Source: Candidatus Woesearchaeota archaeon (GTDB lineage: Archaea; Nanobdellota; Nanobdellia; Pacearchaeales; GW2011-AR1). From it: DNA of 64,000 nt. The notes under the pieces were generated by a model. It was not told where the DNA came from. It saw only the letters and a list, made by a program, of their open reading frames with translations, and did no database searches. Position 1 is the first letter of the stretch; each line of letters starts with the position of its first letter. Position numbers and translations under genes: made by a program. The stretch lies in assembly GCA_964497435.1 (NCBI GenBank), contig CAZCCD010000002.1, positions 10,050 to 74,049 of the forward strand, read 5' to 3'. Below, one piece after another: positions 2,606 through 31,592 of this stretch.

Positions 2606-3799
2606 TTATCTTACATCAAATACCAATTCTTCTGGGCCTTTTTTGTATAATGTTTCATCTATCATATCTTTGTTAGTTTCTGGATTTAAAGCTCCCTCAT
2701 TTTTTATTTTTATAGAACGATTTCCTGTAACATAACCAATGTTTTTTGATTCAATACCATGAATCCTTGCAACATCAATAACTCTTTCAGGATATGGACT
2801 TACAATTACCATTCCTTGACCCATATTCCAAGTTCTGTATGCCTCTTCATCAGATACATTTCCTAATGCTTGAGTATATAACATAAAATCAGAAGGCTTA
2901 AAAGGATTATCTATCACTGCACCTAACTCAGAGGGCTTTAATATTCTTCCAAGTTTTCCAGGAATTCCCCCGCCAGTAATATGTGCAATCCCATGAATTT
3001 CTACTTTTGGCTCTCCATCAAATCCTCCAAACATATCAACAACAGCTTTAGAATAAATCCTAGAAGGAGTCAAAGCTAAACTTCCTAAAGTGTGTAGGCC
3101 CGTCTTCCAAGAAATATTGTGCCAGTTTTCTTTTTGGTGATAAGTCATTACTCTTCTAACAAGCGATAACCCATTTGATCTAAACCCGTCTTCTTTCAGT
3201 CCAACAAGAGCATCTCCTTCTTTAATTTCTCTTCCAGTAAACATTCTATCCTTCCTAGCAAACCAAACAACTCCAGCTCCCCAATTATAATTAAATGAAT
3301 CATATCCCCCTACTCTACTGCCTAATTCAGCAACCTCCCCATTAACAATTGCGACATTAGCGGCTTTGGCTGCTTCGATATATCCTTGAGCTAATTGTCT
3401 TACTTGATCAAGAAAAGGATTACCATTTTCATCTGATAAAGATCTAACATCTAAAATAGAGCCAACTAAAACAGGCTCTGCCCCTCTAACAACAGCATCA
3501 TCACACACCATTGCAAATAAATCATAAGCAATTGTTCTATGATTTCCAACTCTTTCTGCTAACTCCATTTTAGTTCCAACACCATCAAATCCAATATTCA
3601 TCAAAGTTCCATAAGGTAAATTCGAAACATCAATAGCTCTAACTCCAGAGAAATCGTCAAAAGGAACAATAACCTCTCCTAATCGTCCTTTTCTATTACC
3701 CCATGTTTGTTTTGCAGCATTATAAAGGATTTCAGAAACATTATCCCCTAAATCAATATTCACTCCAGAATCTGCATAAGTTGTTTGTTTTATGGACAT
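2606..3799 (-). CDS. purM: phosphoribosylformylglycinamidine cyclo-ligase (AIR synthase, PurM family)
   Basis: TYADSGVNIDLGD (cf. SYKDAGVDIDAGN), GFDGVGTKMELA, AMVCDDAVVRGAEP, AHITGGG and YRTWNMGQGMVIV all align to PurM; ~50 aa longer than bacterial PurM. Confidence 0.8.
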   Translation of the reverse strand: MSIKQTTYADSGVNIDLGDNVSEILYNAAKQTWGNRKGRLGEVIVPFDDFSGVRAIDVSNLPYGTLMNIGFDGVGTKMELAERVGNHRTIAYDLFAMVCDDAVVRGAEPVLVGSILDVRSLSDENGNPFLDQVRQLAQGYIEAAKAANVAIVNGEVAELGSRVGGYDSFNYNWGAGVVWFARKDRMFTGREIKEGDALVGLKEDGFRSNGLSLVRRVMTYHQKENWHNISWKTGLHTLGSLALTPSRIYSKAVVDMFGGFDGEPKVEIHGIAHITGGGIPGKLGRILKPSELGAVIDNPFKPSDFMLYTQALGNVSDEEAYRTWNMGQGMVIVSPYPERVIDVARIHGIESKNIGYVTGNRSIKIKNEGALNPETNKDMIDETLYKKGPEELVFDVR

Positions 3800-3866
3800 A
3801 AAGAGTTAATATAAAAAGGATTTAAATATTTTTATGTGAAATTTTCATCAAAGTAAAGTAGCAAGG

Positions 3867-6467
3867 TTAAAGCGTAGCTTGCTTCTCTCCTAACAAAGCC
3901 TGACCATACTTTCCATCAAAACCAGGCTTGACTCTTATTTTTCCTTCTCTATTTTTCAAAATCAAATCTATTAATTTTGCATCAACGTTATTTTTAATAA
4001 AATCAGTTTCAGGAACATTTAATAAAATATTAAACTCATTACCAAAATTTTGGATTAAAGAATTATATCTTTTCCAAACACTGACAGAATTCATATCGAC
4101 TCCAAAATGCAAGGCAATTAATTCATGCAAAGGAAGTAATTTATAAAAAGGTTTTGCATTAATTGGTTTATGTCCTAAAGGAAATTTAGCAATTTTGTCA
4201 ACCCTATTATCCACACCAATTGTCAACGGTTTTTTGCAAATAGGGCAAAGTCCATTGAGTTTTTTTGTTTCTTCTGGTGAACAAGAAAAATTACAGTTTC
4301 TATGTCCATCATAATGATATTTTCCATATTCAGGAGGAGTTTCTATTGTTGCCTTTAATCCTTGTCCTGTCCTTATTGCCTTCATAATATTTTCATAACT
4401 TAATTCTTTAAGCTCAAATATAGTTGCCTCTCTTCCAATCCTCCACGGCCAAAAAGAATTATGAACAACCAATTGATTAGCAAGATAATTCTTATAACCA
4501 GGAACAGAGATATCATAAAGATAATCAACATCTGACTTAACATTATTAACAGATTTAACTTCTGCAAGGATAAAATCACCCACTCTCTTCACTTTAGACA
4601 TCCTAAAAACCTTAAGATTATTAACATATTTATTTAACTTATTTCTTTTAATATTATGGTTAAATCCAATTTTCTCCCTAAACTTTCTCAAATTCTCCCC
4701 ATAGAGAATCAAATTATGACGATATTTCTGCTTTTTCTTCTCTAATAAATTTAAATAAACTGAACTAAAAATTTCAAACTTTTTTAATAAAGAATCAATT
4801 TGATATAATAACAACTTATTAGCTGAACATCCCTTAACACCATGATCATCTAAAGAACCTTCTGCATCAAAAAATCCTCTTAAAAATCCAGATATTTCAT
4901 TCAAGGGTGCGGAAAAAATCGAACGAGGTATTCTCCTTATTTTGCTTCTAAAAACAGACTCTGGAAAGTTTAACTCAAAGAATTTAGCTATTGCAGAAGG
5001 AATAACTAAACCGTAAGAATGTTGTTGAGAATACTTAAACAGCCTAGAGCTACAAGAAAATAGATTTTTAATTACATCTTGATAATATCTTAAAATATCC
5101 TTGTTCTTATCTGTTAAGATTAAACACTTCCCCCTATTTATCTTAGTCATACAACCATCTCCAATAAAATATCCCAATAGTTCAAAAAGTTTAATAGAAG
5201 AATAATTTGGAAAACTAACCATAGGACCCATATGTTTACAATAATTACCTGTAAATAAGTTATAATCTAAACTAAGAATTTCAACTATTTTTTTTAATAT
5301 TTTATCATTAATTTTTACAACTCCTTTCTCAATTTTCCAATAATGGTTTTTATCTATTCCTAAAAAATCAGCTAATTGTTTCTGTGTTAATTTCCTTTTA
5401 TTTCTTTTAGACCTTAAAAAAGAAAGTCCATCTCTGCTTAATGAAAAATATATATTAATATCTGGTTTCTTCATTAATATACTTCCTTCGTCATTATGGG
5501 AGATATATGCGGATCTAATTAACAGGTCTCCTTTTTTCAAATGAGAGGCAAACTTTTCTATTATAACCCCTTTCTCCCACACATAAAATCTATGTTTATC
5601 AGAGACTTTTATCTCACCTCCAGCATATTTGATTTCTTTCAGCATATTTGGAGATAGTATCTTAGAATACTGAGCTTTAACTCCATTTTTATAAGACATA
5701 TCTTTAAAATCGGCGTAAGCTACTATACCTTCATCTTTAATTTCAGAGATGGGAACAGTGTAACCATTCTCCAAGGTAATAAAAGTATCGGGATGCACAC
5801 AGTGAGCGTCTGAAAAACTAACAACATTAACATTACCTTCTCCAATCTCTCCTAATCTCCAGGCCATAGAAGGATCAGCGCTCATCCCTGATTCAATTGC
5901 ATAAATTTTATCTGTCTGATCTTGAAAACACTCTTTTAATGAATCAAATCCAGAATCACTCCCATATAAACCGAACCAAGGCGTGAATGCATGAGCAGGA
6001 ATAATTTCAATTTTGTCTTCAATTTCTTTTAAGTCTTTAACTAAATCTCTACATGTTATACCAAATATAGGCCTTCCATCATAATCCAATCTTCCTTTGC
6101 TTCCAAGATAGCTTGTTATTTTATCTGCGATTTCTCTGTTTGACGCAAAAACCAAAAGATGGACAGCCCTTCTCTTTCCTCCTTGAGAAAACATCAAGCT
6201 TACTTCTGTCTGCCATAAAAAAGGAAAACCATTGACAGTTCTTAAAATTCCTTTATCATCTTCTGTCAATTTTTCATCAATTTCTTTCCTATGCAATGGA
6301 TGCTGAAAATCCCCAACCCCCATCAAACCAAGACCTTTTACTCTCCCCCATTTCTCAAGATTATCAATGCTTAAATCCTTAGAAGTTGCCCTTGCATATT
6401 TGGAATGAATCTGTAAATCAGCAATAATAAAACTCTCGTTAATCATAATAATCAAGAAATAAAACAC
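3867..6467 (-). CDS. endonuclease Q (EndoQ, PHP-domain nuclease with C-terminal zinc ribbon) interrupted by a LAGLIDADG intein
   Basis: ADLQIHSKYARATS...MGVGD, VHLLVF, IPAHAFTPWFGLY, MSADPSMA, SFSDAH|[intein]|SFWPWRIGRE...CPICKKPL follow the Pyrococcus EndoQ order; host ~418 aa + intein 448 aa. Confidence 0.7.
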   Translation of the reverse strand: MFYFLIIMINESFIIADLQIHSKYARATSKDLSIDNLEKWGRVKGLGLMGVGDFQHPLHRKEIDEKLTEDDKGILRTVNGFPFLWQTEVSLMFSQGGKRRAVHLLVFASNREIADKITSYLGSKGRLDYDGRPIFGITCRDLVKDLKEIEDKIEIIPAHAFTPWFGLYGSDSGFDSLKECFQDQTDKIYAIESGMSADPSMAWRLGEIGEGNVNVVSFSDAHCVHPDTFITLENGYTVPISEIKDEGIVAYADFKDMSYKNGVKAQYSKILSPNMLKEIKYAGGEIKVSDKHRFYVWEKGVIIEKFASHLKKGDLLIRSAYISHNDEGSILMKKPDINIYFSLSRDGLSFLRSKRNKRKLTQKQLADFLGIDKNHYWKIEKGVVKINDKILKKIVEILSLDYNLFTGNYCKHMGPMVSFPNYSSIKLFELLGYFIGDGCMTKINRGKCLILTDKNKDILRYYQDVIKNLFSCSSRLFKYSQQHSYGLVIPSAIAKFFELNFPESVFRSKIRRIPRSIFSAPLNEISGFLRGFFDAEGSLDDHGVKGCSANKLLLYQIDSLLKKFEIFSSVYLNLLEKKKQKYRHNLILYGENLRKFREKIGFNHNIKRNKLNKYVNNLKVFRMSKVKRVGDFILAEVKSVNNVKSDVDYLYDISVPGYKNYLANQLVVHNSFWPWRIGREATIFELKELSYENIMKAIRTGQGLKATIETPPEYGKYHYDGHRNCNFSCSPEETKKLNGLCPICKKPLTIGVDNRVDKIAKFPLGHKPINAKPFYKLLPLHELIALHFGVDMNSVSVWKRYNSLIQNFGNEFNILLNVPETDFIKNNVDAKLIDLILKNREGKIRVKPGFDGKYGQALLGEKQATL
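4458..5801 (-). mobile_element. intein (448 aa) in EndoQ with LAGLIDADG homing endonuclease domain and an internal HTH
   Basis: Begins CVHPDTFITLENG right after the catalytic SDAH, ends VVHN followed by S; two dodecapeptide motifs LLGYFIGDGCMTK and FLRGFFDAEGSL; HTH-like LTQKQLADFLGIDKNHYWKIEKG. Confidence 0.8.
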
Positions 6468-6658
6468 TATATAATTATTTTGATAATATATAAGATGTAA
6501 TTTTTATAAGATAAATCAAATTTTTATTAACTTTAATTAGATATAACTATTAAAATAGGAGTCATATTTATGTTATTCATATAATTAGTTGGAGTTAAAT
6601 TAAATCGTCGTTAAAAATAGTTTTAATATACCTTTAATACAAATCATTTATGAAACTT

Positions 6659-9600
6659 TTATTGTCTCAACCTATATAAAATCACAATGACTACTGCTGC
6701 TATTAAAACAGCAACAATAGCCCAAAGCCACCAATAGCTTTTTCCTTCTTTAGTAACTTCCTCTGTTTCACTTACAGCTGCTCCTGTGATTGGAGATCCT
6801 GCTTCCTCTTCTTGTTCACTAGAAGGTGTGCTAGCAACAGGATCTGAAGTTGCAATAATTTTTATATTTGCTTTATTCGTTCCATTTGTAGCAGCTATAC
6901 TGTTAAGGGTCACAGCAACATCATAAAAGTTATCTCCTGTAACCTCAAATTTCTTTGTTTCTCCAATAGCAAAAGTAGATGTTTGAGGCGTGCTCGAAAC
7001 TTTAACAGTAGCTGCTGCTACTGTTACACCAGTAAGCTCAACAAAATGATACTCACTATTTAAAGTAAATCTAAGTTTATCATTAACATTTAAATCCCTT
7101 GAATATCCTGAATTAAATTGTGACTCACTGACATCGTGTATTGAACCTGCAGCACCTGCACCTCCATCACTTGAGGAACTAGAAGATGATGAGCTGCTTC
7201 CTGAAGAAGGCGCATTTCCAATAACATTTGGTGCAACCCCAGAGAAATGAGGCACTCTTATGTATATCATATTTGAAGTAGTATTAATATAACAATATTC
7301 TGTATTTGTAGTTCCATTGAGATTAGAATCTGTCTTACTACATGTTCTTCCAGCAGTTGTTAAAAAGTTTCTATAACCTGTTGAATTATAAGACCTATTA
7401 TTTGAATTTCCTAAATACTGGTCAATATCTGATGTTATATTAGAAGTTGTATGGCCTAAAGAAGCGTTCCAAACAACATTCCAGTTCTCGTCGTAAAGGA
7501 AAGGTATTGAGACATTCATGCTGCCTGCATCATTGATTACAGAATCAGAATAAGGCATCCCAATTACCACATAGTCATAAACTTCTGAAGGAACAAAACT
7601 TCCAAATTGCCAGACCTGATTTGCACTACTTCCACCACTTGATGCCTGATCATTTATGACACTCTCCATTGGGGGTTGTTTAGCCGAGAACATGTCAAAA
7701 TTATAGAAAGTTATTGTTGTATTTGATGAAATAAGTTTCATCTCCATATTTATCTTTCCGGCAACCAAGGCCTTCAAAGGATTAAATTCTGAATTATTCA
7801 TAGCTGTTAAAACGCAAGAAGAGCCTGGATTTATTCCATCACAAGTTGAAGTTGATCTTATGAACCTCATGTTTATTGGAAAAGCAGAGACATTCATTTC
7901 TTCAAGCTGTCCAGAAGAATTAACTTTTCTAAATCCTAAATCACCATCTCCTTCATTCATCTGAATTATAGTTATGTTATTTACGGCTTTGCTTAGATTA
8001 ATTGTTTTTTCAGTTGGGGGGGCTTGATTAGGGAACAATTTTATCTTTGCTATAACATTTCTAGGTATTGGCCAGACAAAACTTCCTTGAGAAATCTGAT
8101 TATCCTCAATTATATAGTGTAGTTCGCCAAAAGTACTATCATTTCTAAGATACAAATCTACATGGGGGGTATCATCTGTAATTAAACCACCAGTAGAATT
8201 CACAAAGTTAATTGTCACTTTTGTTGCATTTACGTCTCCACCAGTGGCATTATTATAAGCTCCAGCAAGAGGACCTAAAGTAACATTTTGAGTCGTTGTT
8301 GCAGAAAGGCTAACATTTTGTAACATTCCCACGTACTCTGCAACACCATCATGAGTTGAATTTGTTGTGTTTTTTGCATAAAACTCTAAAAGATAATTAG
8401 AATTCAGCAAGCTTATATTATACCACGCAAATTGGCCATTCATCGTACAAGGAGGATTAGATTGATTTAATTGTGAAGTCGATGATAAATTAAGCTCTCC
8501 TGTATCTTTCATTGGAGGAACAAAACCAGTCCAAGGCATCATTCTTGGGATTATTGATGTAACATTTCTTATTGGTGTTAAATTTCCAGAAACTCCGATA
8601 CATCCTGATAGATAAACTCTTGTAACAGTCAAATTAAGTTGAACATTTAATACCTGACCAGCCACTGTAGGAGTAACTGTTGAATTTGATCTTGGAGGTG
8701 CAGGACAGTGCGTCGCATTCATAAACTGACCATTGCATGTTGACCCATTTCCAAATGAGAATCCGCTAATTCCTGTGAATGGCTCTCTTAAAACCATAAT
8801 CGTATACTGTCTATTCAATGGAACATAAACTTGCTTAACACTTACATTTGTCCTAAAATTACTTTCAATTGGAAATCCTGCTTTTTGCTCCATTACTTCA
8901 TAGCCAAATAACTGCCACCCGCCTGCAGTCGTATTTATTGCACTAATATTAATAGTTGCAGCATCTTCAACATAGAAAGTTGTTCCATTAAGTGTTGGGG
9001 GTTTCATAAATTCATTCCCTTGAAAGTCATCAAAGTCAAAACTAGGCAATGGGTAATACATCATTGCAGGGAAAGGAGGTAATATAGTCCCAACTTTAAT
9101 CACAGAACCACTTGCATTTTCATGTGTTGAATTAGAACCTTGCCTATAATACATCTTTAACAAGAACAAGTCTGCAGAGCTATTAATATTTGACAAAGTA
9201 AAAGAACCATCATTACCACTTAAAGCACTAGCTACAAAAATCTCTTTTGGCGGGCCATTTGGTTGCTCAGCAAATTGATAAATAGAAACATTGGCTCCTG
9301 TTACATTATGACCTGTTTCATTTTTTATATAACCTGAAAAAGCAAAATTAGTTGTAGTTGATGATGTTGAGGCATTCCATCCTCCATTATCCCTTGTCAC
9401 ATTAAGGCTTATATTTACATTTTGGCCTTCTACTGAAGTAACATTAAATGCAAAATTCTTTGTTGTTCCCCATTTGAATCCTCCTGCTGTTAGATTCCAC
9501 CTTAAACTACTAGAAGTATTAATAAAAGATGACCATGTCGCATTTGTGGAATTTGAATTAGAAACAAATGTAACGCCCATAGGCAATGAAAACTCAACTA

Positions 9601-27708: not shown

Positions 27709-30048
27709 TTATATTTTCTTCTTTTTAAGCTGTTCCCTAAGCCAGAGCTGCCATAATGGAAAAACCCTCTCTGAAACAGGCAACCCAACTTCTTCTCTAA
27801 CTTCTTCTGAAATTTTATGAAATGCGTCATTAGACAAAACATTAAACTTAGCTTCTAAAATTCTTGAGTTTTTTGTTTTATTTGAAATATCAACTAATTC
27901 CTTTTTTATCTTAGCCCTAAGGAGTATATTATCATAAACAGCGTCCCAATTTCCGGCCCACCCCTTCACATTAGATGCAATATCTTTTATGACTTCAGAA
28001 TCTCCGTTAATCAAATCTTCAGAAATCTCTAATTCATCTTTATCTACATTATATTTAAGTAAATCAACAAATCCTTTCTCTTCTAAGGGATCATTCTTCC
28101 AATGCTTCCTTACTTCTGAAACTTGAATTAAGCGTCGCCATGAATGTAAACCATCAGGACTTTTAATTGGATTCGCCACAGCTATTACATCTGTTGCCTT
28201 AAAACTAGTTGCCGGAACTTCGAGGTCATTTACGACTCTATCAAAAACAGCATAAGGACTTGCTCCGTGAATTGTTCCTGCAACAACATTAGCCAAAGCT
28301 CCAATCCTCATTGCTTCATAAAGGGCTTTTGCTTCTACTGACCTAATTTCTCCTATAATTAAGCAACTATCTCCTAATCTTAAGCTAGTCCTTATACCAT
28401 CATCTGCAGAAACTTCTGCCCCTGTCTTTAAAAGGGCTGATCTTACTTTCATCCTTAATATATCATAATTAATCTTTCTTAGAGAATCAACAGGCAATTC
28501 TAAAGTATCTTCCAATACAATAATCCTATATTTAGGGATAATCTCTAGCATTAAGCTTCCAAGAAAACTCGTTTTTCCAGATCCTCTTGTTCCTGCAATT
28601 AATATTGTCCTTGCTCCATCAATAAGGAAACTAAAAATGCCTGCAGCAATCGGATTAATCATCTTATTCTGTATAAATAATGGCAATGTCCATGGCTCAT
28701 CTCTATGTCTTCTAATAGAATATGCTAAACCTCTTGGAGAAAGTGGCTCTTGGATTATTGCAACCCTAGCATTGATGTTCTCTATATTTAATTGAGTGTC
28801 TAATATAGGATTAGCTTCATCAAGAGGCCTTCCTGAAATCATCCTAAATTTGGCAGCCCATGAATTAACATCTTCCTGACTTGGAATAATATTTGTAATA
28901 CACTCATCAAATTTTTGATGTCTTATAAATATTGGATTTAAAGATACAGGAGCATTTAAGGAGATGTCTTGAAGATTTTCATCCTGAAGAAGGACCTCTA
29001 AAATTCCAAATCCAATTGTATGCCTTACGAGTATAGATGATAATTTATTTAAGTCAGAGTAACTCATTCTTATTCCTTGAGCCTGTGATAAATCTCTTAA
29101 AAGATCTCTTGAAATGTTTAAAAAAACCTGTCTTACTCTTTCAGTATCAATAAACTCTTCTGCCTTTGGTTGGTGCTCCATTAAAACACCCTTAGCAAGA
29201 TTCAACAACATGTTATGATCTTCGCTTAGAGAATTTTCAGGAGGTAATAAATGATAGATAAACTTAGATTCACCTTCTCTTCTCAAAATGGTTACAATAG
29301 ATTCATCAAAACCCCCTTCCCTAACTTTATATTGTCCTATAATCTCTGCTCCTTTAGGCAAGTCAGAAACAAGCCTCGTGAAAGTGTAATTCGGAATTGT
29401 ATCTGGCCTAAATATTTTATTATAAATTTCCCTTGATCCTAACTTATATTCATTAAGATAAGGCAATGCACTTTGTATTATCTTTGTGTTTTTAATCCTG
29501 TTAAATACTCTTTCCAAAAGATGCACGTAGCTTTGTTGGCTTGGCTGGTATAGTTTTTGTTTCTCAAGCAAAGCCCTCGCCTCGAATAAAAATCTCCTTA
29601 TCTCTGAGTAAGCAGCAACAGGATCTCTTTTTAATAAAAAAAGAAAATTAAAAATATCATTATATCTTTTAGAGGATTCCTGAGAAGAGTTTAATGAGAG
29701 TCTGTCTTGTGAAAGAATCCTTTCCTGGCTTGAAAAATAAACATAAAGATTAGCTATTTCCATCAACATCTCTACCTCATTAAAATCATAATTATAATTC
29801 TTCTGTTGAACAAGGACAATCCTTGAAACATTTGGATTTTTAATTAAAGAATCTATGACTCTTTCCATTACATCAGGATAGTCGGCAATACTTGGAACAA
29901 AAGGCACACCAAGATAATTAATATATAATACATCCTCACCCCCTTCCCTATTCACTTCAAATGCATACAAAGGTGTCTCTTTATTAAATTTCATGAATAT
30001 AAAAAGTAGAAAGGGTTTAATAATTTTTACAAGATGTAAAGTAATCAT
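27709..30048 (-). CDS. type II/IV secretion-system ATPase (FlaI/PilB/TadA/VirB11 superfamily) with N- and C-terminal extensions
   Basis: Walker A IAGTRGSGKTSFLGS, Walker B RIIVLEDTLE, Asp box, His box GTIHGASPYAVFDR. Confidence 0.85.
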   Translation of the reverse strand: MITLHLVKIIKPFLLFIFMKFNKETPLYAFEVNREGGEDVLYINYLGVPFVPSIADYPDVMERVIDSLIKNPNVSRIVLVQQKNYNYDFNEVEMLMEIANLYVYFSSQERILSQDRLSLNSSQESSKRYNDIFNFLFLLKRDPVAAYSEIRRFLFEARALLEKQKLYQPSQQSYVHLLERVFNRIKNTKIIQSALPYLNEYKLGSREIYNKIFRPDTIPNYTFTRLVSDLPKGAEIIGQYKVREGGFDESIVTILRREGESKFIYHLLPPENSLSEDHNMLLNLAKGVLMEHQPKAEEFIDTERVRQVFLNISRDLLRDLSQAQGIRMSYSDLNKLSSILVRHTIGFGILEVLLQDENLQDISLNAPVSLNPIFIRHQKFDECITNIIPSQEDVNSWAAKFRMISGRPLDEANPILDTQLNIENINARVAIIQEPLSPRGLAYSIRRHRDEPWTLPLFIQNKMINPIAAGIFSFLIDGARTILIAGTRGSGKTSFLGSLMLEIIPKYRIIVLEDTLELPVDSLRKINYDILRMKVRSALLKTGAEVSADDGIRTSLRLGDSCLIIGEIRSVEAKALYEAMRIGALANVVAGTIHGASPYAVFDRVVNDLEVPATSFKATDVIAVANPIKSPDGLHSWRRLIQVSEVRKHWKNDPLEEKGFVDLLKYNVDKDELEISEDLINGDSEVIKDIASNVKGWAGNWDAVYDNILLRAKIKKELVDISNKTKNSRILEAKFNVLSNDAFHKISEEVREEVGLPVSERVFPLWQLWLREQLKKKKI

Positions 30049-30274: not shown

Positions 30275-30598
30275 ATGAATGAAGAGTATGATTATTCTTC
30301 CTATTATAGTGAAATAGCAACAAGAATAAGAGATTTAGAAGAAAGACAAAGGAATTTAAGAGACAGGATTATTCTTATTGGAGAAAATTTGATAGAAGCA
30401 AGAGAAAAATTTTCAAGAGAAACAATAGACCTAAAAAAAGAAATTCAAGAAATAAAACAAACACTAGAAAGATTAAAATCATTTATCGAAAATGCTTCTT
30501 CAGAATTTACAAAATTCGCAAGAAAAGAAGACGTAGAAATACTGGCAAAGCAAGCAAAAATGTTTCAACCTTTAGGAAGCATTAAAAAACAATTGTAA
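30275..30598 (+). CDS. coiled-coil protein, hypothetical
   Basis: Heptad-rich; C-terminal part resembles the coiled coil of 30876..31592. Confidence 0.35.
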   Translation: MNEEYDYSSYYSEIATRIRDLEERQRNLRDRIILIGENLIEAREKFSRETIDLKKEIQEIKQTLERLKSFIENASSEFTKFARKEDVEILAKQAKMFQPLGSIKKQL

Positions 30599-30646
30599 GA
30601 AAAATTAAAAAGGCATTAATATTTAAAATAATAAATAAATGAAAAG

Positions 30647-30891
30647 ATCCGACAATTGTTAGAATAATCTGAGGTTTTGGCTCAAATCAACCAGAGGCGG
30701 CAAGAAGATTCGGCGGTTGTTGGATTAATCCGAGGTTTTTTGTCAGGTCTCTTCGGAGGCAACAAGAAGATTCGGCAATTGTTGGAATAATTCGGGTTTT
30801 TTACTCGGATTCATCAGAGGCAATGGAAAAATCCGATAGGATGCTGGAATCTAAAAACCCGCAGGAGGTTTTTATATGGGAGTCTTAGAAT
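30647..30891 (+). repeat. tandem direct repeat, ~3.8 copies of a ~61-bp unit, ending in the RBS and start codon of 30876..31592
   Basis: Units start ~30647, 30708, 30770, 30831: atccgacaattgttagaataatctgaggtttt... / attcggcggttgttggattaatccgaggtttttt... / attcggcaattgttggaataattcgggtttttt... / atccgataggatgctggaatctaaaaacccgcaggaggttttt. Confidence 0.8.
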
Positions 30892-31592
30892 TAGTAACAA
30901 AGATGAAAAGTCAGGGAAAAGGAGAATTTGAAATAATTAAAGCACTCCAGAATCAAGGAGTGCCTCCAAAAGAAATTCAAGATGCAATAAGCCAGGCACA
31001 AATAAAAGAAGCTGTGGCAGGAGAAACATCTGAAATGCAGCAATCAATGATGGACCAAGAACAAGATAATTACACTAATTATAATCCAGAAGAATATGTC
31101 CCTCAACCTCAAATGCCAATGGATGTTGTTCCTCAGGCACCTTATCAAGAGCAATACCCCCAAGACACATCCATGCAATCATATGGATATCAACAACCCC
31201 TACCCCAATATCAATACCCTACTCAAGGTCCTCCTCAAGGCCAAGAATATTACCCTCAAGAATACCCTGAACAATATATGCCTGAAACCTATTCTGGTGA
31301 TTCAGAATCATTAATAGATGTAGCAGAGCAGGTATTTAGTGATAAATCAAAAAAAATGCAAGATTCCCTTGAAACTCTCGAGGAGTTTAAAGCCCTAACA
31401 GAAAACCAGGTCAAGAGTTTTGAAGAGAGATTGAGGAGAATAGAAGAAATAATAGACAGGCTTCAAATCTCTATATTAGAAAAAATAGGTTCATATGGAG
31501 AAAATCTTTCTAACATTAAAAAAGAAATGTCAATGATGCAAGATTCTTTCAGGAAAATAGTTGGCAGTGATAGGCCGTTAAGAAAACCATAA
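30876..31592 (+). CDS. low-complexity Gln/Pro/Tyr-rich protein with N-terminal helical domain and C-terminal coiled coil
   Basis: QYQYPTQGPPQGQEYYPQEYPEQYMPETY central region; strong SD ggaggt 7 nt upstream. Confidence 0.5.
   Translation: MGVLELVTKMKSQGKGEFEIIKALQNQGVPPKEIQDAISQAQIKEAVAGETSEMQQSMMDQEQDNYTNYNPEEYVPQPQMPMDVVPQAPYQEQYPQDTSMQSYGYQQPLPQYQYPTQGPPQGQEYYPQEYPEQYMPETYSGDSESLIDVAEQVFSDKSKKMQDSLETLEEFKALTENQVKSFEERLRRIEEIIDRLQISILEKIGSYGENLSNIKKEMSMMQDSFRKIVGSDRPLRKP

Follow-up and report, generated by a model that had tools for sequence, protein, structure and literature searches.

A tandem array ahead of a DPANN-specific gene contains an intact copy of a dispersed structured element

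Introduction

DPANN archaea make up much of archaeal diversity, and to our knowledge almost nothing is known about the control of their gene expression. In a 64,000-nucleotide stretch of a Candidatus Woesearchaeota archaeon genome (the window), a GC-rich tandem array precedes the gene for a 238-aa protein, which raises the question of what the array is and whether it has a meaning beyond this locus. A sequence-only reading had named three options, namely regulator-binding sites, a structured 5' leader and replication slippage, without recognising the element, and had missed the dispersal of the unit across DPANN genomes. The array is one intact and two decayed head-to-tail copies of a structured DPANN element of about 90 bases.

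Genes flanking the array

All window features described below lie on the + strand. Upstream of the array is a gene for a 107-aa coiled-coil protein (30275-30598), which had been described as divergent. It is in fact encoded on the same strand as the 238-aa gene and is its conserved syntenic partner: in tblastn searches it was found directly upstream, in the same orientation, in 79 of 80 related DPANN loci. In Pfam the 107-aa protein has only weak coiled-coil matches.

The 238-aa protein (30876-31592) is DPANN-specific. A search returned 606 homologues, every one from DPANN-type sources, and nothing usable was found in Pfam, NCBIfam or a PDB profile search. AlphaFold2 predicts an N-terminal three-helix domain (pLDDT >95), disorder at residues 61-139 and a single long helix at 144-230. 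This agrees with the earlier description of a helical N-domain, a low-complexity segment and a coiled coil. The term prion-like has no support beyond low complexity: the Q/P/Y/E-rich segment is a linker that differs in length and composition across 52 aligned homologues.

The tandem array

TRF detected an array at 30644-30800 (period 61, 2.6 copies, 75% matches) with a score of 167, while the runner-up array in the 64-kb window scored only 66. A repeat search resolved three in-register copies starting at 30644, 30705 and 30767, spaced by 61 and 62 nt and 64-75% identical. The periodicity of about 61 bp noted by the sequence-only reading is thus confirmed by both methods. The region is also GC-rich as noted, with 0.42-0.44 at 30650-30850 vs 0.13-0.27 in neighbouring intergenic DNA. 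The 35-nt unit core has a single location in the window (chance expectation: 0 matches), and neither simple patterns nor the family model R1 described below found further copies of the element in the 64 kb. In an independent assembly (L005) the array is identical, with 0 mismatches, and no copy-number variation was seen in this comparison. The population is also present in SRR12113383, SRR12113384, SRR12113420 and SRR12113430.

A CRISPR mini-array was ruled out: conservation extends over all 61 nt of the unit, so that the supposed spacers (64-75% identity) are not unique. A coding repeat was ruled out as well, the period of 61-62 nt not being divisible by three. A 37-aa ORF within the array (30677-30790) has no support.

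Unit 1 (30644-30704) is degenerate. It contains a GAGGTTTT box (30671-30678), an AGAGGC loop motif (30693-30698) and a weak stem of CAAATC (30683-30688) with GATTCG (30707-30712). Its match to model R1 is not significant (7.5 bits in a 600-nt search) and its folding z-score is +0.9. Unit 2 (30705-30766), also degenerate, has a GAGGTTTTTT box (30732-30741) and a hairpin of CAGGTCT (30744-30750) with AGATTCGG (30768-30775) around a GGAGGCAA loop (30755-30762). It lacks the A-tract arm of hairpin P3, and only its P1 part matched the model, at 7.6 bits (E=0.15 in 600 nt), two of the pairs being non-standard. Both units fold no better than shuffled sequence. They look like decaying local tandem duplicates in which the A-tract arm is gone and little of the stem pairing is left. 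The ccgagg...cttcgg hairpin that had been assigned to every unit occurs in unit 2 alone. The first half of unit 3 (30767-30797) consists of a spacer and a GGGTTTTTT box (30795-30803) and runs into the intact copy.

An intact copy of the element

The intact copy was identified with R1, a covariance model of 92 positions built solely from other genomes. It matched 30798-30877 over model positions 1-92 of 92 with 41.3 bits (E=1.1e-5 for 64 kb, both strands). This segment comprises the last repeat unit together with what had been called a partial fourth copy. As a plain repeat the latter aligns poorly; joined to unit 3 it makes one complete conserved element.

In this copy the P1 stem is formed by TCGGATT (30805-30811) and AATCCGA (30830-30836), and it is this hairpin that is conserved in the family. 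The P1 loop carries AGAGGCAA at 30816-30823, and GGAATC at 30847-30852 is the counterpart of GGGAAAATC. P3 pairs AAAAACC (30853-30859) with GGTTTTT (30867-30873), with predicted pair probabilities of 0.95-0.99. The Shine-Dalgarno sequence GGAGG (30864-30868) and the ATG at 30876 are those of ORF 30876-31592, as previously assigned. Since the 3' end of the 16S rRNA is GAUCACCUCCU, both GGAGG and AGGU are genuine Shine-Dalgarno matches. A long-range pairing P0 (CGGGUUUUU at 30793 with AAAAACCCG at 30853) was considered as a switch against P3 and rejected, as it is 5.6 kcal/mol worse and has a pair probability of zero.

No gathering-level Rfam 15 match was found in the 64-kb window. Permissive Rfam searches with the array and with a canonical copy reached at best 11-17 bits against thresholds of 40-73, and no snoRNA-type match was among them. 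No description of the element emerged from the literature, which was searched by sequence and topic. The family is therefore new to Rfam and to the literature searched, and its function is what we infer below.

Structure and covariation of the family

Members of the family are about 85-95 nt long and dispersed across Woese-, Pace- and Nanoarchaeota. The element comprises hairpin P1, which has a GGAGGCAAU loop, a variable middle, a conserved GGGAAAAUCG and hairpin P3; L159:8585-8700 holds a canonical copy. In P3 an A-tract is paired with GGUUGUUUUC, and the hairpin bears a Shine-Dalgarno-like AGG; the stem has 10 positions and the loop 3-5 nt, and a single A follows in most copies. The consensus ends (5' GCGATTTTC, 3' GGTTGTTTTC) are not mutual reverse complements. 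Hairpin-shaped insertions occur at tolerated positions (L041, L046, L114, L121), and P1 stems can differ even within one contig (L117: CCGAATCC and GCGATTTCC).

Covariation was analysed in an alignment of 64 sequences, with 500 shuffles and slid pairings as controls. Compensatory changes were found in 7 of the 8 P1 pairs. Double-change cells numbered 44 in P1 vs 11.2 +/- 2.8 in the shuffles, none of the 500 shuffles was as high, and all slid controls lay below the true pairing. The closing pair of P3 switched from G-C to A-U six times. Helix P2 received no covariation support in this alignment. Folding of single sequences is unexceptional, with z-scores of -0.15 to -0.9 for most copies, and the P1 counts of G-U vs A-C (about 9 to 3) are too few to fix the sense-strand RNA as the folded strand.

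A conserved leader peptide or uORF was rejected, as no coding frame is conserved: loop length alters the frame with respect to the conserved 19-mer, and the UAG is missing in many copies. In L039 and L046, uORFs run from the old start codon, which has been retained, to the UAG of the P3 loop.

Location of the family members

A metagenome scan with the conserved 19-mer uncovered at least 120 contigs. The only IMG/VR match falls in a giant-virus bin and is probably due to chance, and a viral origin was rejected. Among 80 independent DPANN genomes, 8 have the element ahead of the orthologue of the 238-aa gene, and in one further DPANN genome it precedes the partner 107-aa gene.

Other host genes belong mainly to translation and transcription and include EF-1alpha, EF-2, EF-1beta, S10, S3Ae, L37ae, L24e, L10e, aIF-1A, SRP54 and Spt5, in addition to tRNAs; copies are in sense orientation. 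Between P3 and the ATG there is a gap of 1 nt in 13 copies and of 2 nt in 30; in front of tRNAs, position +1 falls 1-3 nt past P3. The intact window copy, with P3 ending at 30873 and the ATG at 30876, has the same 1-3 nt spacing and orientation. Sense-oriented copies were also found within a tRNA intron and a 23S rRNA intron, and further copies lie in an rRNA spacer.

A putative 5' leader

In 11 of the 59 window ORFs a TATA-like 8-mer begins at position -29 relative to the start codon; elsewhere, the genome relies on leaderless promoters with TATA at -29 from the ATG. A TATA-like box read from the sequence, TATTTAAAAT at 30620-30629, is a candidate leader promoter. Applied to this box, the -29 spacing would place the transcription start at about 30651. 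TATA-like boxes also lie upstream of P1 in other genomes, at -47 to -36 and at -30, which suggests that transcription starts 0-17 nt before P1.

The preferred explanation, which we regard as having an even chance of being correct, is that the element is duplicative, is transcribed as a 5' leader and provides the ribosome-binding site, and that the array is the leader region of the 238-aa gene, made of three tandem copies of one family member. Two of the options offered for the array, a structured 5' leader and replication slippage, thus have joint support, the former from the position of the array and the covarying family of its last unit, the latter from the decaying extra units. Transcription from the old promoter near 30650 would turn the whole array into a 5' UTR of about 225 nt, as judged from promoter spacing. 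The element would convert a leaderless gene into a leadered one, whose translation would rely on the Shine-Dalgarno sequence in P3. P3 would partly cover this sequence and P1 would display a second one, so that the leader would set or regulate ribosome access. It may also affect RNA stability or 5' processing. The family would spread by duplication or insertion, and the two upstream units would be local tandem duplicates without the A-tract arm, now decaying.

A parallel is offered by leaders that sequester the Shine-Dalgarno sequence (riboswitch platforms, ribosomal-protein leaders, RNA thermometers). They too have a last hairpin that pairs the Shine-Dalgarno region before the AUG, a conserved structured 5' UTR (as the DPANN element would be) and a coherent gene set. 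However, the DPANN element has no conserved ligand, protein partner or alternative pairing, and P0, the one alternative examined in the window, is disfavoured; it is patchy per gene and is also found before tRNAs and in introns. The copies before tRNAs, in the tRNA intron, in the 23S intron and in the rRNA spacer are not explained by translation control and count against a leader.

Presence, absence and possible mobility

The presence of the element is patchy, even among sister genomes, and it is thus dispensable at the 238-aa gene. In three comparisons of filled and empty sites between close relatives, the element was found directly behind what had been the start codon of a gene that is otherwise leaderless, with a start codon downstream of P3. 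The boundaries in these pairs are sharp and lie directly after ATGR, and ATGG is regenerated past the element. Some copies are truncated at the 5' end and retain the 3' module alone, and tandem or abutting copies are found in other genomes (e.g. L095, L100, L135). Copies at orthologous genes are no more similar to one another than copies at different genes (0.717 vs 0.671, p=0.14). Vertical inheritance at orthologous genes was rejected on this non-significant signal, and repeated insertion or homogenisation fits the values as well as conserved function does.

These patterns, together with the copies inside introns and the rRNA spacer, are what would be expected of a selfish non-autonomous mobile element without a host function that inserts at the 5' ends of highly transcribed genes. 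This is possible but in our judgement somewhat unlikely. It could be a hairpin-ended IS200/IS605 derivative moved as single-stranded DNA, or a SINE-like element mediated by RNA. The array would then have arisen by tandem insertion or duplication, and the Shine-Dalgarno sequence would be kept since insertions that silence genes are lost. The strong bias towards translation-apparatus hosts and the strict orientation speak against it, and the diverse copies within single contigs (L117, L095) argue against a recent burst. It is also compatible with the preferred explanation, as a mobile element can be a leader too.

A flanking direct repeat of at least 11 nt is present in 9 of 61 copies (lengths 11-56 nt), and few of those repeats adjoin the element. 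Long direct target duplications of this length range, which favour mobility, were found in L162, L164, L125 and L066/L116, but most copies lack a flanking repeat of at least 11 nt, and target-site duplication was rejected as a general feature since it is confined to a minority. Terminal inverted repeats and a target duplication of short, fixed length, both features of MITEs, are absent from the DPANN element.

Correia (NEMIS) elements of Neisseria and MITEs, including those of Sulfolobus, resemble it in being small non-autonomous repeats whose presence differs between relatives and which can give an adjacent gene expression signals and be transcribed with it, as the DPANN element probably is. 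Its bias in orientation and position is far stricter than theirs. The BOX elements of Streptococcus pneumoniae, bacterial intergenic repeats of the modular form boxA-boxB(n)-boxC, are likewise short, dispersed and without a transposase of their own. They have an internal module that can be multiplied in tandem and a predicted RNA fold, and are co-transcribed with their neighbours, as seems likely here. In contrast to the DPANN element, BOX is not fixed to a start codon or tRNA +1, has no tie to translation genes and differs in sequence and architecture.

IS200/IS605 hairpin-ended derivatives are palindrome-associated transposable elements. They share with the DPANN element a sub-terminal hairpin at each end, strand-specific insertion by a short target (here after ATGR) and the lack of target duplications at most copies. 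An ORF for an IS200-like transposase (Y1_Tnp, E=1e-26) adjoins the element in L022, which favours a link. However, it is the only IS200 transposase in about 1.2 Mb of element-bearing loci, the ends of the L022 IS copy are unlike those of the element, and no cleavage or guide motifs were identified. Given that single transposase, IS200 was rejected as the general mobiliser. SINE-type retroposons, like the DPANN element, include copies truncated at the 5' end, carry an A-rich stretch close to the 3' end, occasionally have target duplications that vary in length and are linked to tRNA genes. In the DPANN element, by contrast, the A-tract is internal and base-paired, most copies lack duplications and no reverse transcriptase partner was identified.

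Less likely readings: transcript ends, promoters and chance

The element may instead be an RNA-level module that defines the 5' ends of transcripts, which we consider unlikely. In one version the RNA may be cut 1 nt past P3, by an RNase Z-like activity or by itself, so that long precursors would yield mRNAs without a leader and tRNAs with mature 5' ends. In another, the element may be a leader that spreads when it is attached to the 5' termini of abundant cellular RNAs and then returned to the genome as a copy. Both versions would account for the element's equal distance of 1-3 nt from the ATG of leaderless genes and from tRNA +1.

The same distance would also follow if the 3' part of the element (GGGAAAATCGAAAAAAACC...GGTTGTTTTC) were a core promoter firing 1-3 nt after TTTTC, which is quite unlikely. 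Its products would be leaderless mRNAs and leaderless tRNAs, as in Nanoarchaeum, and the P1 palindrome would be the upstream site of a dimeric regulator, so that the three window units would be three regulator sites. A DNA-level promoter would account for the 3' module occurring alone and for highly expressed host genes, and leaderless tRNAs at a fixed distance from box A are known in N. equitans (PMC3491384). However, at the TATA position the element has ATCGAAAA (canonical) or GAATCTAA (window) vs the TTTATAAA-like 8-mers of the window ORFs; ATCGAAAA is not TATA-like, and a test for an archaeal core promoter (BRE/TATA) found no TATA of the genome's type at the usual distance. The canonical TATA-like boxes upstream of P1 would start transcription just before P1. 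In addition, one sequence-specific regulator would not suit the differing P1 stems on L117, P3 covaries at its closing pair, hairpin-shaped insertions are tolerated, and an internal promoter has no obvious role in a tRNA or 23S intron.

That the element is a 5'-end processing module, transcribed and then cut 1 nt past P3, is very unlikely. An RNase Z-like activity, which would read P3 as a minihelix, or self-cleavage would free either the mature 5' end of a tRNA or an mRNA without a leader, beginning with 5'-AUG or 5'-AAUG. The tight, near-identical spacing from P3 to the ATG or tRNA +1 is consistent with this, as are the uniform P3 (10-position stem, 3-5-nt loop, then a single A in most copies) and the leaderless mRNAs that these genomes otherwise translate. 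In N. equitans, RNase Z cleavage is known to generate the 5' end of an adjacent RNA (PMC3491384). The basis is geometry only, no known self-cleaving ribozyme family in Rfam matched, and the conserved AGG in P3 would be useless if the leader were removed.

The C/D box sRNA genes of Nanoarchaeum equitans are described as mobile, lie beside tRNA genes, in a tRNA intron and at gene borders, and have their ends set by tRNA-processing enzymes (Randau 2012, PMC3491384). The DPANN element resembles them as a small structured, tRNA-adjacent and intronic sequence of DPANN genomes. It differs in having P1 and P3, adjoining start codons and carrying a Shine-Dalgarno sequence, and inspection of the consensus and the window copy by eye showed neither C (RUGAUGA) and D (CUGA) boxes nor the ACA box of an H/ACA sRNA.

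Finally, it is highly improbable that the array is a chance slippage product, a GC-rich tandem duplication upstream of a gene without meaning beyond the locus: the low model scores and shuffled-like folding of units 1 and 2 would suit it, as would the identical array in L005 without copy-number variation, but the last copy fits a model from unrelated genomes (E=1e-5 over the window) and in eight other genomes the element lies ahead of the orthologue, so slippage is refuted for 30798-30877 and can apply to the two extra units alone.

Significance

A conserved structured element sits at the 5' ends of genes for elongation factors, ribosomal proteins and other housekeeping functions, and of tRNAs, in otherwise leaderless genomes. 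Its presence explains why some intergenic gaps are unexpectedly long and rich in GC. Should it be a leader, as we prefer, its hosts would be a candidate set of co-regulated translation-apparatus genes in reduced genomes, and it would offer a concrete RNA in which to probe for a ligand or protein partner. If it is mobile, it would represent a novel kind of archaeal repeat, targeting transcript starts and carrying a ribosome-binding site of its own. Either way, the covariance model is ready for the annotation of DPANN genomes.

The tandem array upstream of the 238-aa gene

The tandem array is real. A tandem-repeat search of the 64-kb window found it at 30644-30800 (period 61, 2.6 copies, 75% matches) with a score of 167, against 66 for the runner-up. 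A second, independent repeat finder placed in-register copies (units 1 to 3) at 30644, 30705 and 30767, at intervals of 61 and 62 nt and with 64-75% identity. This bears out the array proposed by the sequence-only reading, which was also right that the region is GC-richer than its surroundings (42-44% G+C vs 13-27% in adjacent intergenic DNA) and that the 238-aa ORF starts here, with GGAGG at 30864-30868 and ATG at 30876. Two of its details were incorrect: the ccgagg/cttcgg hairpin assigned to each unit occurs only in unit 2, and the gene at 30275-30598, described as divergent, lies on the same strand as the 238-aa ORF. It had also suggested searching for the unit beyond the locus. The 35-nt unit core has no second site within the window (chance expectation is no matches), and a related element is present in other DPANN genomes and metagenomes.

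The 238-aa protein has 606 homologues, whose named sources are all Nanoarchaeota, Pacearchaeota, Woesearchaeota or "archaeon"; searches of Pfam, NCBIfam and PDB found no relative. Scanning species-representative genomes with this protein gave 80 loci, from metagenome-assembled genomes of such archaea, and in 79 of them the immediate upstream neighbour, in the same orientation, is a 107-aa coiled-coil gene, usually separated by 10-70 nt. The two genes (window 30275-31592 and 79 related loci) form a conserved co-oriented DPANN pair, neither with a known domain. The predicted structure of the 238-aa protein has a confident three-helix N-domain, disorder at 61-139 and a single long helix at 144-230. 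The helical parts described earlier are thus seen in the model, and the Q/P/Y-rich stretch is a linker that differs in length and composition between homologues. Among the proteins encoded nearby in the window are a PRC-barrel protein and an ATPase of the FlaI/TadA type.

A dispersed structured element

In some of the related loci the gap before the 238-aa gene is long and holds a conserved leader. It consists of a hairpin, GCGATTTYC...GAAATCGC with loop GGAGGCAAT, and a 3' part made of GGGAAAATCGAAAAAAACC, 3-5 nt, GGTTGTTTTC and the ATG. The "partial fourth copy" of the array aligns poorly as a plain repeat; together with unit 3 it has the layout of this leader. A metagenome scan using a 19-mer found at least 120 contigs, mostly with the whole element, which comprises a first hairpin (P1), a variable middle and a hairpin before the ATG (P3).

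In an alignment of 64 non-identical copies, compensatory double changes were found at 7 of the 8 P1 pairs. Double-change cells numbered 44, compared with 11.2 ± 2.8 in column shuffles (reached by 0 of 500), and every slid control fell below the real register. The P3 closing pair alternates between G-C and A-U; a further proposed helix, P2, has no covariation support. A covariance model built from foreign copies only, with the window copy left out, gave a single significant match in the window, at 30798-30877 (+), covering model positions 1-92 of 92 (41.3 bits, E=1.1e-5). Units 1 and 2 scored just 7.5-7.6 bits; they are without the A-tract arm of P3 and their P1 stems are weak. The array therefore consists of one intact element after two tandem duplicates, which are probably decaying, and so represents a local triplication of one member of a dispersed DPANN family of structured elements occupying gene 5' ends. 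Neither the window, its copy nor a canonical copy matched an Rfam family, and literature searches by conserved sequence and by topic found no description of the element; the family is apparently undescribed.

Additional hairpins (e.g. GGCCCC-N-GGGG followed by TCTCC-N-GGAGA) occur in some copies at fixed positions: between GGGAAAATCG and AAAAAAACC in L041, L046, L095 and L135 (L-numbers denote related loci or contigs) and in the P2 region in L114 and L121. These match the expansion-segment pattern of structured RNAs.

In Logan assemblies of four samples (SRR12113383, SRR12113384, SRR12113420, SRR12113430) a contig starts exactly at window position 30846; the contig to its left runs to 30871 in one sample and to 30765 in a second. 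This break falls at the P3 hairpin and coincides with no repeated 31-mer; it may stem from heterogeneity among strains, from sequencing errors caused by the hairpin, or from low coverage.

Possible mobility

Genomes with the element are spread across the tree of the 238-aa protein, and close sisters differ in its presence (L039/L060, L041/L070, L046/L068). Sister flanks are identical as far as the old start codon; filled sites hold the element and 10-25 extra nt directly after ATGR or GTGG, with a start codon ATGG after P3. Sharing an orthologous host gene does not make copies more similar to each other than copies from different genes are. Some copies consist of the 3' module alone, tandem or abutting copies occur in L095, L100 and L135, and direct target duplications of 11-56 nt flank a few copies and are absent from most. 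Terminal inverted repeats of the element were not found. An IS200-type Y1 transposase (Pfam Y1_Tnp, E=1e-26) separates the leader element from the 107-aa gene at L022:1833-2237 (-), the only one in ~1.2 Mb of fetched loci. A purely selfish element is a somewhat unlikely reading; P1 covariation and the model match support a structured 5' leader, one of the options first raised for the array. The two upstream units are probably tandem duplicates, in keeping with another of these options, replication slippage.

Several flanks carry duplicated host sequence. The last 17 nt around the 107-aa gene stop codon (30589-30605, ACAATTGTAAGAAAAAT) look like the spacer that each repeat unit contains (ACAATTGTTAGAATAAT, e.g. 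30652-30668), one period downstream. A second copy of the 3' end of the 107-aa gene lies downstream of the element in L066 (~56 nt) and L037. A tRNA 5'-end fragment (GCCCCGATAGTTCA...) follows the element directly in L097 and L102, with a complete tRNA ~60 nt further on in L102, and in L162 and L164 a duplicated tRNA 3' end (AGTTCGATTCTGCGTGGGACCA) flanks a truncated element left and right.

Promoters and Shine-Dalgarno sequences

Of the 59 window ORFs, 11 have a TATA-like 8-mer (TTTATAAA-like) that begins at -29 relative to the start codon, a sharp peak in agreement with the Nanoarchaeum box A spacing (PMC3491384), and 17 have one within -35 to -26; examples precede ORF starts 15640, 44654 and 27677 (all -) and 30275 (+). 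Judged from this pattern, the window genome is largely leaderless. GGAG/GGTGA Shine-Dalgarno sequences occur mainly ahead of operon-internal genes. In the ATPase ORF at 27709-30048 (-), a TATA-like box lies just ~14 nt upstream of the listed start; the true start is probably an internal Met (MKFNKE...), 18 codons downstream.

If the element were a promoter module, a TATA-like box would be expected at the usual position inside it. There is none in the canonical form (ATCGAAAA) or the window copy (GAATCTAA); canonical boxes in other genomes lie upstream of P1 instead, at -47 to -36 and at -30, which would put transcription start 0-17 nt ahead of P1. In the window, the box TATTTAAAAT at 30620-30629 would place the start close to 30650, where the array begins. 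A related genome has GAUCACCUCCU at the 3' end of its 16S rRNA, so the P1-loop GGAGG and P3 AGG(U) are true Shine-Dalgarno matches. Folding of the intact copy, an analysis proposed earlier for each unit, predicts P3 strongly (30853-30859 with 30867-30873, pair probabilities 0.95-0.99), overlapping the 3' part of the Shine-Dalgarno sequence; energies of single copies are unremarkable. A rival long-range helix was 5.6 kcal/mol worse than the P3 fold. The G-U to A-C ratio in P1 is ~9:3, a count too small to decide the folded strand. Taken together, the box positions, the Shine-Dalgarno matches and the P3 prediction indirectly favour a transcribed leader, and make a promoter improbable.

At two filled sites (L039:2408-2491, L046:2249-2374) the old start codon survives close to the predicted transcription start and begins a uORF of 27-41 codons, which reads through the element to a UAG in the loop of P3, 9-14 nt ahead of the main ATG. 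No uORF reading frame is conserved across the family.

Genomic positions of element copies

Among 74 distinct model matches, 45 have an ATG opening a real ORF within 0-3 nt after the element; 13 copies have 1 nt between the last base of P3 and the A, and 30 copies have 2 nt. The host genes belong mostly to the translation and transcription apparatus: EF-1alpha, EF-2, EF-1beta, aIF-1A, ribosomal proteins S10, S3Ae, L37ae, L24e and L10e, SRP54, Spt5, and a small zinc-ribbon protein (zinc-ribbon matches only in Pfam) presumed to be subunit P of RNA polymerase. Further hosts are a presenilin-type peptidase, SMC and HerA. In the 80 loci (~440 kb), which were selected via the protein and not via the element, eight copies lie directly before the 238-aa gene and one before the partner gene; none was found elsewhere.

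In other copies tRNA position +1 comes 1-3 nt after the element. All copies at tRNAs, introns and the rRNA spacer are in sense orientation: just before tRNA-Ala in the L090 rRNA spacer (6587-6700), ahead of a tRNA that follows the 16S gene in L198, as a 3' module in a tRNA intron of ~100 nt (L184:1616-1789), and full-length in an intron of >300 nt in a 23S rRNA gene (L090:3937-4039 (-); LSU rRNA 2910-6222). The anticodon loop of the L184 tRNA reads CUUAUA, and the conserved ACUGCUUAAGGUAGCG region follows closely after the 23S intron copy. The identical spacing to ATG and to tRNA +1 is the feature least well explained by the leader model and makes processing and transcript-end readings worth testing. 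A 5'-end processing signal seems improbable.

The best-supported reading, held at about even confidence, is a transcribed 5' leader that is itself duplicative or mobile. With such a leader, a gene otherwise expressed without one would become Shine-Dalgarno-dependent.
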